64,000 bases of DNA from Fervidicoccaceae archaeon (GTDB lineage Archaea; Thermoproteota; Thermoprotei_A; Sulfolobales; Fervidicoccaceae). A program made the position numbers. Numbering within the stretch: position 1 is the stretch's first letter; each line of letters opens with the position of its first letter. Below are positions 42,001 to 45,000 of the stretch, one piece after another. The DNA lies in contig JAVYOA010000009.1 of assembly GCA_038734945.1 (NCBI GenBank), positions 1 through 64,000 of the forward strand, written 5' to 3'.

Positions 42001-45000
42001 AAAATTACTCAGGACCATTACATATCGCGAATATTCTTGCGAAGGCCGATTCTGCTCCTTCCACCTTAATTGGTGCTCCAGATATGAGGCAGCGCTTGTT
42101 TAGAACTTTTGATATCTCCCCTCCGAGGTTCTCAGCATGCAGCACTCCTCTTGGGAAAGTGTATGTGTGAAGCACCTGGTAGTTCTTTGGCCACGGCATC
42201 ACTTCGTCAACAGACTTTCCAAACTTCTCCTTGAAGAGATCTGCAATATCTGGTCTAACTCTCCTAATAACTGTATCGAGCGGGTGGTCCTGGCTTATGG
42301 CATCTACACCAGTCCACTTGAGCTGCTTCTTAACACACCACTCAGCAAACTCAGCAGTAGGTCCGGGATGCATTAGCTGATACCTCACAGTATCAGCGGT
42401 TGGCTGATCCCATTGATACTTGTGATATCCCGTGTGAATAATCAAAATATCTCCTGGCTTCAATTCGAGGTTGTGCTCCTTCAGCTTCCTCTCAATCATT
42501 TCCGATGTGTATATACTCAGATCCTCCACTTCATCACTTATATCAACGATCACTCCTTCTCCAACAAAATGGTCAAGAGGAATCATGTCTATTGATGGGG
42601 CTCCAGGGTCAAAATGAATTGGACCATCCATGTGTGTTCCGATGTGCCACGCAGTTTCAATAGCCTGCGCTTGGACTTTGTTCTCAGGAAGAGTCTTTAT
42701 CCAGTACATCTTGAATGGTGGATATGTTGGAAAGGGCGGCGCATATATACCGAGGGGCTGACTCAAGTCGTAAATTCTTGCCTCGTCCCAATTAATGAGC
42801 TTGCTCCACTTGTATTTTGGTTTTGGTATGTATGCCTTTATGTATGGTTTTTCCAACCTAGAAGAATAGTTTATGCTCAATTCCATCACTTCACTTTTTT
42901 ATTACAATTATTAATAACTAAACTTAACAATTATAAAAGTTTTCCTCTAATATTACCTGAATTCAGGCAGAAAATCCATCATCATAAATTTGGCTCCATT
43001 TTAACCTCCAATCCTAGCCTCTTGCCTGCAAAGTTTTAAATTCCCTTACGGAATCTTTTTATTGTTGAAATGATTGCGGGCCCGTGGCTCAGCCAGGTAG
43101 AGCAGCGGGCTTTTAACCCGTTGGTCCCGGGTTCAAATCCCGGCGGGCCCGCATCTCATATCTCACTTGCTTGAGCTTGATGCTCTCTGCTCCTTAAAAT
43201 ACAAAGAAATCGATCACAAATCTAAAATAATGGATGGTCAAGTTATAAAGAAGTGAGTGCTTGTCTACATGGTGATTCAATTTGTCAAAAGTGCTCGTAG
43301 AATATCCTGAAGCTGCAGTCTTCAAGAATCTATTCGAAGCAATATCAAAGCTACTTGAGGAGGTAAGAATATCCTTTTCAGAGGAAGGAATGAAGATAAA
43401 AGCCATGGATCCTAGCAACGTTGCCCTCATCGACGTATCATTCACCCAGGATTCATTCTCAGAGTACCAGGTAGAGAATCCAATGAGCGTTGGGCTAAGC
43501 TTGAGCACAGTGCTGAAGGTGATGAAGAGGGCGAGGAGAGGAGACAGGCTAGAAATAGAGGCAGACGAGGAAAACGTGCTCATGAGGCTGATATCCTCGT
43601 CTAGAAGAGAATACAGGCTGAGAAACATAGAGGTAGCATCACAGGAAATCCCAGAGCTGAACTTGAGCTTCACTGTGAAGGTTAGGTTGCTATCAGATCC
43701 CTTAAAGGTTATTTTGAAGGATGCTGAGCTGGCTGGGAGCAGTGCTGTGTTTGAGGCAACTGAAGATGGAAAGCTGCTTATTTACAGCGAGGAAAGAGGA
43801 AAATACAGAACTGAAATAACCAAAGACTCCAGCTCTGTTCTTGAGCTAACGGTAAAAGAGAGAGCAAAGAGCTCCTATGATATTCTCTATCTTTCTAACA
43901 TTCTCTCTCTGACTAAAGTGAGCGACTCCCTCTCCTTGGAGTTTTCATCGCAGGCACCATTGAAAATGGAGTTCGAGGTAATGGGGAAGGGGAAAATAGT
44001 TTATTTCCTCGCCCCAACTCAAGTCTGAGTTTCAGATGGAGTTATTCTTCCCTTTTTTTAAATGAGGAAAAATATAAAATTGCTCTCATTTAAAAAATAA
44101 ATGATGCTCAGTAGAGGGCCCGTAGCTCAGCCAGGCAGAGCAGCGGTCTTCGGGCATTCCCGTCCGGAGGCTGAAGCTCCAGTCAGCTATCGCTGGCCTG
44201 GCCCGTCATGCTATAACTTGACGGGTCTGTTGACCCATTGGGGATGAAATGTGACTGGAATAGGATAGCTTGAGAGAGACCCGAAGGTCGGGGGTTCAAA
44301 TCCCCCCGGGCCCACCACATATAAGGGAAAAAGGGCTCCTGGCATCTCGGTCCTCCACTTTTCCCTCTCAAATAAAGTAGATTAATTTAGAGATAGATAT
44401 TATTCTCAATTGAGGGATTGTCCAAATGGTAGAGCCGTGGATAGGAAAAGCAGCAACTTTTAATTACTTCAGCGGAGCATCTCAGGATGGAGCATTTCTA
44501 GACTCACTTGTTTTCTCCATTCACAACATTGAAGCGATAATAATCGATCCCATGCTCTCCAAAACATTGGGGAGGGAAAATGCTATCCTAAAGCAAACAA
44601 AAGCAGTTAAGCTAGCTCTTTTTGCCAGAGACTTTCCAGCTGAAGCTTTGAGGTTCATATCAGAGCTCGACACACCTATCATACATTACGCGAGGGATAA
44701 AGATGCAATATTCTCTGTAGCAGATCTTGGCATAAGACCATCGGTGATCTTGGCTGACGAGAGCATCCCAACTGGCTTAGGATGCATGGGTGATTCTACA
44801 GAGAAGGCAAAATGCGTTTCCTCGTCCTCAGGATCATCCCATGTTCTACTCTTGGACAGAGACGAAGACATCTTCTTTTCGAAAGGAAGAACTAAGCTCT
44901 TCACAAAGAGAGGGGAAGAACCTGGGTGGAGGGCCGAGATTCTCTCAGCTCATATAACAGCTCTTATCGCTTCTGGTTTTGACGCAGAGAGTGCAGTCGA

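Follow-up and report, generated by a model that had tools for sequence, protein, structure and literature searches.

The 64,000-nucleotide stretch of the Fervidicoccaceae genome analysed here (the window) contains, on its forward strand between positions 44116 and 44317, a genuine tRNA-Trp(CCA) gene interrupted by two introns (Table 1).

The tRNA-Trp gene and its splice motifs

In-silico excision of both introns resulted in a clean 77-nt tRNA-Trp(CCA) cloverleaf whose single mismatch is G27.A43. The gene was called neither by ARAGORN in its default mode nor by Rfam at the gathering score, and a 44-aa ORF (44211-44345, minus strand) overlaps it. No second Trp gene was detected across the nine contigs of this genome (G000). 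The genome-wide survey's note had described a sole tRNA-Trp gene, partly called as an ORF, missed by both programs and carrying a G27:A43 mismatch in its anticodon stem, and our analysis agreed with it on each of these points as well as on sequence and coordinates. The use of the relative G005 to define exon 2 was also borne out; G007b and L034 likewise lack intron 1, and the boundaries of exon 2 are therefore fixed. No reads matching the locus were found in two metatranscriptome runs from the same study as the DNA, about 3/100 of each of which was sampled. The 'joints' observed in DNA runs of that study were rejected, being tRNA genes from other organisms.

Both introns lie in bulge-helix-bulge motifs, at which the archaeal splicing endonuclease would remove them. 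Intron 1 shows a perfect 3-4-3 motif with flanking helices: the central helix joins 44141-44144 (CAGC) to 44170-44173 (GCTG), with bulges GG/T and AA/G, and the inner helix joins 44148-44154 to 44163-44169. In G006 the central helix carries a compensatory change, CGGC:GCCG. The central splice helix of intron 2, formed by C32-C35 and 44273-44276 (AGAG), has three of its four pairs in the window gene and all four in 67 of 73 relatives. The two introns and their lengths stand as described earlier, with the correction that the ends of intron 2 may slide by 2 nt in an AG repeat, the product being unchanged.

Table 1. Features of the tRNA-Trp gene and of its introns (window coordinates)
Feature	Position	Strand	Remarks
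tRNA-Trp exon 1	44116..44146	+	positions 1-30: acceptor 5' strand, D-arm, 27-30
Intron 1, 29 nt, between positions 30 and 31	44147..44175	+	bulge-helix-bulge motif
tRNA-Trp exon 2, GCTCCAG (positions 31-37)	44176..44182	+	anticodon CCA at 44179-44181
Intron 2, 96 nt, canonical 37/38 position	44183..44278	+	bulge-helix-bulge; 3' bulge AG/A38
Intron-closing helix, 5' strand AGCTATC	44185..44191	+	pairs with 44264-44270 (GATAGCT); from folds
Internal target mimic ('decoy') GGCCCGTCA	44200..44208	+	pairs with 44219-44227 (TGACGGGTC), most of guide 1 included
Guide 1 (D' guide) ACGGGTCTG	44221..44229	+	G44225, fifth base upstream of D', pairs with C39 (44280)
D'-like box TTGA (NNGA), non-bulged k-turn strand	44230..44233	+	from conservation
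k-turn C stem hairpin CCC-ATT-GGG	44234..44242	+	from covariation
GATGA + AAT	44243..44250	+	read as bulge, sheared pairs and C'-like box
Guide 2 TGACTGGA	44252..44259	+	pairs with U33-G37 and intron bases 1-3 (44178-44185); G44258:C34
tRNA-Trp exon 3	44279..44317	+	positions 38-76, CCA encoded

A kink motif in the long intron

The core of intron 2 consists of NNGA, a short hairpin and GAUGA, placed between the flanks ACGGGUCUG and UGACUGGA. The block ACGGGTCTG-NNGA-stem-GATGA-NNTRTGACTGGA was invariant in six aligned family sequences, and across nine distinct sequences the same ACGGGTCTG-to-NNTRTGACTGGA block was invariant except for one C-to-U change in L042. Applying k-turn rules to the alignments, we take the G-A-T of GATGA to be the 3-nt bulge and the second GA to form the sheared pairs, and ATGAAAT (44244-44250) to be a 7-nt C'-like box. 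The class-wide form of the kink is NNGA, a hairpin of 2-5 bp as the C stem, a G/A-A-U bulge and GA. This motif (NNGA, paired stem, G/A-AUGA) was present at 95 of 98 aligned loci, being recognised in 87 by a relaxed parse and visible in 8 of the 11 unparsed. The D'-like box occurs in 13 NNGA variants across the class, with GA invariant in every parsed sequence, and all four pairs of the C stem show two-sided changes. A kink of this kind is a site bound by L7Ae, and its sequence suggests that L7Ae would bind here as well.

No box C (RUGAUGA) was found in intron 2 of the window gene, and none at a fixed distance in any relative; leaders in the relatives are only 2-13 nt long, which leaves no fixed place for it. 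Box D (CUGA) is absent about 12 nt past C' in the window gene, where GGAT is found, AGGA being one position upstream. In 44 of 73 relatives the distance from the C'-like box to a D-like NNGA is exactly 12 nt. Among 26 long-tailed sequences, NNGA was seen at this offset in 13 and in at most 3 at any other; in short introns, NNGA at this offset overlaps the GGAGAG required by the splice motif and may therefore be a by-product. We rejected a K-loop formed through the first GA of GAUGA, which leaves no bulge beside the covarying stem and for which a U at the second D' position is seen in only 32/73 sequences. A box C created by circularisation (GAGAG joined to the first intron bases) was rejected too, its distance to guide 1 varying from 2 to 13 nt.

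The survey's note had read the block as a nearly invariant D-prime/C-prime-like k-turn between two guides, with a covarying stem between the boxes, and had cautioned that box C and a proper box D were missing from the window gene. The caution is correct, and the reading was borne out in a wider setting, since the kink, its stem and both antisense stretches are kept across the class and covary with their proposed partners.

Two putative guides flanking the kink

Across the class, the partner of guide 1 is the 3' splice junction together with positions 38-45, its positions n2-n11 being paired in 61-71 of 73 distinct sequences. Positions n8, n9 and n10 covary with tRNA positions 42, 43 and 44, as does n2 with the penultimate base of the intron (66/73); the permutation result was 0/2000 in both cases. 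Counting upstream from NNGA, the fifth base (n5) has C39 as its partner in 67 of the 73. In the window gene, guide 1 forms 7 bp with the precursor junction (the last two intron bases and positions 38-42), about equal to the 8 bp that it can form with mature positions 35-42. The earlier proposal of a duplex with tRNA positions 35-43 was right about C39 and needs correction in its choice of partner, the junction duplex being a near equal of the mature one.

In the window's family, intron 2 exceeds its counterparts elsewhere by 30-50 nt, and it harbours a mimic of guide 1's 3' target. A comparable helix between mimic and guide 1 was present in all nine family-type sequences, with a compensatory A:U pair in L042. 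At 70 C the duplex of guide 1 with the precursor is the weaker one (-6.7 versus -8.7 kcal/mol for the internal mimic), and guide 1 was paired to the mimic in every intron fold. The mimic may keep guide 1 shut, or may substitute for a bound substrate.

Across the class, guide 2 pairs with positions 31/32-37 together with bases 1, 2 and 3 of the intron. These three intron bases are paired with it in 71, 70 and 62 of 73 sequences, through 3, 5 and 4 pair types, respectively, whereas mature positions 38-40 would pair in just 46, 35 and 32. In a permutation analysis 203 of 219 cells were paired, against 114 +/- 6, and none of 2000 shuffles was as high. This covariation with intron bases 1-3 upholds the earlier claim that guide 2 is complementary to positions 33-37 and the first intron bases. 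The spacing GAUGA-N7-CUGG was identical in all 73 parsed loci (93 scanned, with a pattern that allowed 3-12 nt), and the partner of C34 is always the eighth base after the 7-nt C'-like box. Exon 2 lies in a 9-bp helix with guide 2 in precursor folds, and most folds of the intron alone leave guide 2 single-stranded. Given the distances of the two guides from the kink, C39 and C34 fall where a box C/D methylation guide would have its targets.

Distribution and covariation across the class

Full-length homologues are present in five of the eight family genomes (G000, G003, G005, G006 and G007), as reported earlier, with two copies in G007. BLAST, the motif pattern, the covariance model described below (R1) and ARAGORN on the best loci all failed to reveal a tRNA-Trp gene in G001, G002 or G004, and searching via the downstream protein revealed no syntenic locus in these three. 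The tRNA genes missing among G000, G001 and G002 also include those for Gln and Thr. In line with the survey's note, the intron had no match among the Rfam C/D families, with E values allowed up to 10 in the window region and up to 1 at six homologue loci.

Model R1 was built from nine family sequences and searched in a class-level sample of 151 genomes, giving full-length matches in 16 families. The same motif was found in introns of only 54-65 nt. In G042, the tRNA-Trp gene lies at C1:49161-49294 (minus strand). Independent members scored 54-114 bits; the window gene, with kink and both guides in register, scored 130.8 bits, a match that holds by construction because the window is among the training sequences. 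In alignment A4, 17 of 25 pairs change on both sides (0/500 shuffles). Within the family's nine sequences the guide helices hardly covary, and the case therefore rests on relatives from other families. Guide 2 is absent in L118, L125, L129, L138 and L143, guide 1 is absent in L148-L156, and L155 lacks the whole intron, indicating that neither guide is indispensable. By these alignments, the intron element is class-wide and not peculiar to the window's family.

Comparison with known guide RNAs

According to reviews, the euryarchaeal tRNA-Trp intron guides formation of Cm34 and Um39 in Haloferax volcanii, and the excised Haloferax intron is reported in PMC3326292 to form a stable circle. The euryarchaeal guide (H. 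volcanii; Pyrococcus sR50) resembles the element described here in being a 37/38 tRNA-Trp intron with two antisense elements for positions 34 and 39. It is, however, described there as a complete box C/D RNA, whereas here the D'/C'-like kink alone is conserved. A D-like NNGA occurs only in part of the crenarchaeal lineages and is absent from the window gene. Position 39 is C here and U there, and no Rfam family matched. Both euryarchaeal guide duplexes reportedly span exon-intron junctions, according to a 2001 study, as the pairings here do.

A guide role has been proposed for the Sulfolobus Trp intron (Danan et al., 2012; PMC3326292). The accessible text of that report describes the 65-nt intron of S. 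solfataricus as a stable circle with two 7-bp complementarities. It is similar to ours in being crenarchaeal, in lacking consensus C/D boxes and in being complementary near 34 and 39; the same text gives no kink motif, covariation or spread wider than Sulfolobus. The window gene differs in its 96-nt intron, its added target mimic and its second intron at 30/31. The suggestion in the survey's note of a crenarchaeal counterpart to the euryarchaeal guide is apt as a parallel. It requires amendment in that the element is not family-specific, that one had already been suggested for S. solfataricus, and that guide 1 of the window gene pairs better with the mimic than with the tRNA.

Canonical archaeal box C/D sRNAs share with the intron a k-turn or K-loop built from a D'-type NNGA and a C'-type xAUGA, guides of about 12 nt, and a target at the fifth pair from the D-type box. 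They also possess a terminal C/D motif, which the intron lacks. The C'/D' motif of the intron has a true paired C stem where theirs has a loop, and the tRNA-Trp guide is, unlike them, an intron whose ends are held by a splice helix. Engineered guides without box C/D motifs (PMC9670817) reportedly indicate that Nop5-fibrillarin can be guided by RNA lacking the full set of kinks; unlike the tRNA-Trp intron, these are man-made and need no L7Ae. Literature searches returned nothing on tRNA introns in Fervidicoccus and nothing pertinent on 'Trp intron' together with crenarchaeal box methylation, and among the matches listed for L7Ae, Sulfolobus, tRNA intron and k-turn, none concerned this element by its title.

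Proposed function and alternative explanations

We propose, with a probability of roughly 60%, that the window intron is a kink-based guide by which L7Ae, Nop5 and fibrillarin would 2'-O-methylate C39 and C34 on the unspliced precursor. All three proteins are encoded in G000 and would assemble on the kink. Methylation of C39 would be directed from the fifth pair counted from the D'-like box, and that of C34 from the eighth base after the 7-nt C'-like box, with the guide acting either in cis or on a second precursor transcript. Since the splice sites are buried in the two guide duplexes, splicing would follow their release. Judged by its sequence, intron 2 is most likely a degenerate form of the euryarchaeal tRNA-Trp intron guide, with the C'/D' kink only. 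Cm34 has been found in the tRNA-Trp of S. acidocaldarius, and we found no literature report of ribose methylation at position 39 in any crenarchaeon. In S. acidocaldarius, the only tRNA enriched with L7Ae in RIP-seq was an intron-rich 132-nt 'tRNA fragment of Saci_0066', the identity of which as tRNA-Trp is putative; no literature match was found for Saci_0066. Its listed coordinates overlap those of the tRNA-Trp gene of G042, possibly a different genome, and an exact search of genome contigs with the intron of locus L091 gave no match.

A broader reading, which we put forward tentatively and consider rather less probable, is that crenarchaeal tRNA-Trp introns are conserved methylation guides having a single k-turn, two guides and no terminal C/D motif, the splice helix and tRNA body taking its place. 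Methylation of C34 and C39 would then be tied to splicing, since the guide duplexes cover the splice sites, and in the window's family the mimic would gate the C39 guide. It could act as a switch between methylation-competent and splicing-competent folds, or it could permanently take the place of a substrate and so activate the C34 site.

The antisense stretches could instead serve as a processing chaperone or timer, keeping splice sites and anticodon inaccessible until all other maturation is complete, with the kink and L7Ae doing no more than stabilise the fold or the circle formed after excision. Each duplex runs unbroken over its cleavage site and excludes the bulge-helix-bulge fold, exon 2 is held by guide 2 in precursor folds, box C is absent and box D degenerate, and the internal mimic resembles a switch element. 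Yet such a function needs no exact register, and the register is kept (n5:C39 in 67/73 and GAUGA-N7-CUGG in 73/73 parsed). The targets are, moreover, the two positions methylated via the intron in H. volcanii, and Cm34 exists in S. acidocaldarius tRNA-Trp. We give this explanation about one chance in five. The loss of boxes C and D, and of single guides or the entire intron in some lineages, would be expected of a decaying relic of an ancestral box C/D intron, retained only through its partial overlap with splicing sequences. This is improbable, as compensatory changes maintain both duplexes and the C stem over 16 families, the guide helices do not form the splice motif but are in competition with it, and the GA dinucleotides and the spacing are invariant in all parsed sequences.

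Slightly less probable again is that the intron, once excised and probably circularised, acts in trans as a small RNA on other RNAs (e.g. rRNA), its complementarity to tRNA-Trp being secondary. The Sulfolobus Trp intron is a very stable circle, and guide 2 is free in most folds of the excised intron; however, guide 2 covaries with the first three bases of the intron and guide 1 with its second-last, and covariation with the intron's own bases is intelligible only with the unspliced tRNA-Trp precursor as the partner. ARAGORN, when introns were allowed, reported at this locus a poor 94-nt 'tRNA-Pro(cgg)' with one 108-nt intron, and tRNA-Pro(CGG) is otherwise missing from the ARAGORN list of G000. 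We rejected this assignment, which demands a 94-nt tRNA, mismatches in the anticodon stem and a long variable arm that has to be invented. Relatives without intron 1 show GGGCTCCAG directly, and the Rfam tRNA model covers single-intron relatives at 53-55 bits, so that a proline gene is hardly credible here.

Implications

Reviews up to 2024 attribute the self-guiding tRNA-Trp intron to Haloferax and other Euryarchaeota. The alignments show that one kink motif and the two guides have been kept, through compensatory changes, in most families of a whole crenarchaeal class. The origin of the arrangement would then predate the split of the two phyla, and the intron would be a guide RNA that naturally has a single kink motif, a case relevant to the way in which Nop5-fibrillarin measures its target. 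The predictions are that L7Ae binds the intron, that Cm34 depends on the presence of the intron, and that tRNA-Trp carries Cm39. The intron element also explains why tRNA-Trp is missing from gene calls in such genomes, and model R1 recovers the gene.

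The tRNA-Trp gene and its two introns

Excision of both introns by their coordinates yielded a 77-nt tRNA-Trp(CCA) whose sole flaw was a G27.A43 mismatch, as the genome-wide survey's note had described; the gene and its two introns are certain. Also in line with that note, default ARAGORN and the Rfam gathering score missed the gene, returning only tRNA-Lys(UUU) and tRNA-Leu(CAA) in the window, an ORF had been called across it, and no second Trp gene was found in the window's genome (G000; 1.34 Mb, 9 contigs). Permissive Rfam scoring over the region gave neither a tRNA nor a C/D match. 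When introns were allowed, ARAGORN instead reported a 'tRNA-Pro(cgg)' of 94 nt interrupted by a single intron of 108 nt; this call was rejected, as its anticodon stem is mismatched and its long arm invented.

Features of the tRNA-Trp locus (contig JAVYOA010000009.1)
Feature	Position	Strand	Description
tRNA-Lys(UUU)	43078-43152	+	5' half 91% identical to tRNA-Trp exon 1, which lies ~1 kb downstream
tRNA-Trp(CCA)	44116-44317	+	acceptor stem, D-arm and first four anticodon-stem bases (exon 1), 29 extra bases, GCTCCAG (exon 2), 96 extra bases, ACCCGA, variable loop, T-arm, acceptor 3' strand, A73, encoded CCA
Central helix, intron 1	44141-44144 : 44170-44173		CAGC : GCTG
Intron 1	44147-44175		at 30/31
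Intron 2	44183-44278		at 37/38
Target mimic	44200-44208		GGCCCGTCA
Partner of mimic	44219-44227		TGACGGGTC
Overlapping ORF	44211-44345	-	44 aa
Downstream motif	44323-44340		AAGGGAAAAAGGGCTCCT, 6-25 nt past the gene; its GGGCTCC equals tRNA positions 29-35

The downstream motif was retained as GGGCTCCT or a near form at 7/9 family-type loci despite differing flanks. Across G000, ARAGORN with introns called 43 tRNAs, with none for Gln(TTG/CTG), Thr(TGT/CGT) or Pro(CGG). Odd calls were an Arg(acg) with a 47-nt intron, a Ser(aga), a 233-nt Lys(ctt) and a 91-nt Met (sites listed: C1:185584-185702, C9:229732-229843, C9:427908-428140 and C4:22843-22933), and they probably represent misreadings of additional multi-intron tRNAs.

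Intron 1 lies in a textbook bulge-helix-bulge, with a 7-bp inner and a 3-bp outer helix around the central helix and three-base bulges (GG|T and AA|G) cleaved after the second base. In a relative (G006), the central helix reads CGGC:GCCG, a compensatory change. For intron 2, the canonical arrangement pairs C32-C35 with the four bases preceding the last two of the intron, and the 3' bulge is AG|A38. The central helix partner is AGAG in the window (3/4 pairs) and GGAG in most relatives, with 4/4 pairs in 67/73 distinct sequences. Since the CTC of exon 2 is needed by both motifs, the two are mutually exclusive in time.

Distribution in the family and the class

BLAST over eight Fervidicoccaceae genomes placed the full-length gene in G003, G005, G006 and G007 (two copies) besides G000, the set named earlier, and three more variants (L034, L035 and L042) turned up when genome and metagenome contigs were scanned with a pattern; eight other metagenome pattern matches were discarded as chance matches in unrelated sequence. 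The block reported as nearly invariant, ACGGGTCTG-NNGA-stem-GATGA-NNTRTGACTGGA, held in all 9 distinct family-type sequences with the sole exception of a C-to-U change in L042, while the remaining intron diverged. Exon 2, previously fixed from G005, is likewise fixed by the other relatives that lack intron 1 (G007b, L034 and L035). Taken alone, the helices of these 9 sequences barely vary and provide little evidence for or against a structure. In the G007 bin, one tRNA-Trp represents each family subtype, at L002:1504-1704(-) and L009:158-335(-), the subtypes having intron 1 with A43 or no intron 1 with U43; the bin either holds two genes or is mixed.

We built a covariance model (R1) from the 9 sequences, spanning exon 2 to the 3' end. 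No tRNA-Trp was found in G001 and G002 (same genus) or G004 by BLAST, pattern, R1, or ARAGORN on the best loci, and in these genomes the gene is either unassembled or very differently built; G001 is rated 98% complete, yet it is among them. In a class-level sample of 151 genomes from 16 families, R1 gave full-length matches of 54-139 bits in most families sampled. Of the loci in these genomes, 92 were retrieved, and 98 loci were aligned in total. A relaxed parse found NNGA, a paired stem and G/A-ATGA in 87/98, and the motif was plainly present in 8 of the 11 loci that it missed, which were parser failures. Of the other three, L149 and L153 show NNGA-N7-GATGA but have neither a paired stem nor the downstream guide, and L155 has no 37/38 intron, its genome carrying only the one at 30/31.

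Intron 2 is usually 52-72 nt long (64/73 distinct sequences), with 92-119 nt seen only in the 9 family-type sequences. The minimal design comprises a 2-13-nt leader, ~12 nt antisense to the 3' junction (guide 1), NNGA, an 8-15-nt hairpin, GAUGA, seven bases of which the last three are antisense to intron bases 3-1, CUGGAG, and a short tail ending in GGAGAG; the antisense stretch downstream of GAUGA is guide 2. The element is partly lost in L118, L125, L129, L138, L143, in L148, L150-L152, L154, L156, and in L155. Some lineages retain the kink (NNGA, hairpin and GAUGA) and guide 1 without guide 2, and one family retains the kink and guide 2 without complementarity to 38-43. In about 23/73 distinct class-level genes, exon 2 is not preceded by an unbroken 27-31 strand, which we take as a rough indication of an additional 30/31 intron; two-intron Trp genes thus appear to be common in the class.

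Both guides pair with the unspliced precursor

Covariation was counted in a fixed register over the 73 distinct sequences. Guide 2 pairs with C32-G37, all constant, and with intron bases 1, 2 and 3 in 71, 70 and 62 of the 73 (3, 5 and 4 pair types), as against just 46, 35 and 32 for mature bases 38-40. Guide 1 is paired at n2-n11, counted back from NNGA, in 61-71 sequences, with several pair types at n8 (C:G 40, U:G 16, U:A 13), n9 (A:U 42, U:G 18, G:C 3) and n10 (U:A 45, A:U 20). Its n2 tracks the second-last intron base in 66/73, compared to 54/73 for mature A36. When partners were shuffled, none of 2000 shuffles reached the observed values for guide 2 with intron bases 1-3 (203/219 cells vs 114 +/- 6), for a further set (198/219 vs 141 +/- 8) or for n2 (66/73 vs 48 +/- 3). 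Kinship among sequences inflates these tests, leaving unaffected the many independent pair types over 16 families. In an R1-fitted alignment, which is biased towards the R1 structure, 17/25 pairs changed on both sides (0/500 shuffles), and structures shifted by 1-3 columns scored far lower.

By the covariation with intron bases and the shuffle results, both duplexes are real, under selection and formed with the unspliced precursor. The splice motif itself cannot explain them, since they run across both cleavage sites and compete with it. In one lineage (L108, L109 and L132), guide 1 sits a single base farther away from NNGA and is complementary to an unbroken run of 12 mature bases (34-45), and the intron tail has another copy of AGACCCGG.

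The kink and the register of the guides

The GA of NNGA adjoins a stem of 2-5 bp whose 3' strand abuts G/A-A-U-G-A. The stem, noted earlier as covarying in the family, changes on both sides at all four pairs class-wide. By k-turn rules, NNGA followed by the stem would be the non-bulged strand, and the stem, a three-base bulge (G/A-A-U) and GA the bulged one, presumably with tandem sheared G.A pairs. The pair after G.A, between the first base past GAUGA and the second of NNGA, is standard in 46/73, with A:U, G:C and U:A all frequent. On this reading, xAUGA equates to the opening four bases of box C (RUGA), and NNGA to a box D' whose first half is free. Support is good for the RNA-RNA pairings and for the kink motif.

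The proposed pairing of C39 with the fifth base upstream of NNGA was present in 67/73. GAUGA and CUGG were separated by seven bases in all 73 parsed loci (93 scanned, with 3-12 allowed), and so the partner of C34 is the eighth base past a 7-nt C'-like box, or position five counted back from the end of a 12-nt guide. The survey's note had considered targeting of C34 by the N+5 rule unsupported; in the window's gene the expected box D site reads GGAT. NNGA occupies the expected box D start in 44/73, where in short introns it overlaps the GGAGAG required for splicing. Among 26 longer-tailed introns it was at that site in 13 (UUGA 8, UGGA 2, GUGA 2, GGGA 1), with no other offset exceeding 3. A search for box C found none anywhere, as before. 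The register retained is that of a methylation guide.

A target mimic in the window's family

In folds of 9/9 family-type sequences, guide 1 was paired within the intron to an upstream copy of its target. This mimic reads (A)GACCCG in the other family-type sequences and forms a perfect 10-bp hairpin in L034; in L042 its helix has a compensatory A:U, while the same guide base merely wobbles with tRNA G42. In G000, G007a and G003, the mimic takes up those three bases of guide 1 that face 43-45 in most relatives, and guide 1 then forms 7 bp with the precursor (-6.7 kcal/mol, 70 C) vs 9 bp with the mimic (-8.7). Guide 2 was unpaired in most folds of the excised intron and closed a 9-bp helix with exon 2 in precursor folds. 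Perfect mimics of at least 6 bases occurred in 13/73, namely the 9 family-type sequences and one other lineage whose intron simply opens with a copy of ACCCGU. In one class-level family (L066, L068, L070-L072 and L074), intron 2 opens by repeating the 6-7 bases with which exon 3 starts (ACCCGTA), which makes the splice position ambiguous (37/38 vs ~44/45) and lets the intron start double as a mimic.

Relation to known tRNA-Trp intron guides

According to reviews, the tRNA-Trp intron of H. volcanii and Pyrococcus is a box C/D RNA that guides Cm34 and Um39, works in trans and is not needed for growth. Unlike this euryarchaeal guide, the window's element has one kink and no box C. Danan et al. 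(2012; PMC3326292) describe the 65-nt Trp intron of S. solfataricus as a highly stable circle without a consensus C or D box, with two 7-bp complementarities near 34 and 39, and propose a conserved guide role. Cm34 is reported in S. acidocaldarius tRNA-Trp (Wolff et al., 2020). An L7Ae RIP-seq study (Daume et al., 2017) lists just one tRNA as enriched: the entry 'tRNA fragment of Saci_0066; many reads of intron', 132 nt long and located at complement(49180..49311). The tRNA-Trp of genome G042, with a 60-nt intron at C1:49161-49294 (-), overlaps these coordinates and fits as a candidate match. We found no published description of how widely the element occurs in Crenarchaeota, of its conserved kink or of the covariation; key primary literature lay outside the search, and this statement is provisional.

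G000 encodes adjacent fibrillarin and Nop5, plus L7Ae. Methylation by the tRNA-Trp intron family is strongly suggested, and C39 methylation in the window's own gene less strongly so. The window's element is best read as a tRNA-Trp intron guide, widespread in the class, that is reduced to one kink motif; the version in the window adds to this a second intron and a target mimic within the long intron.
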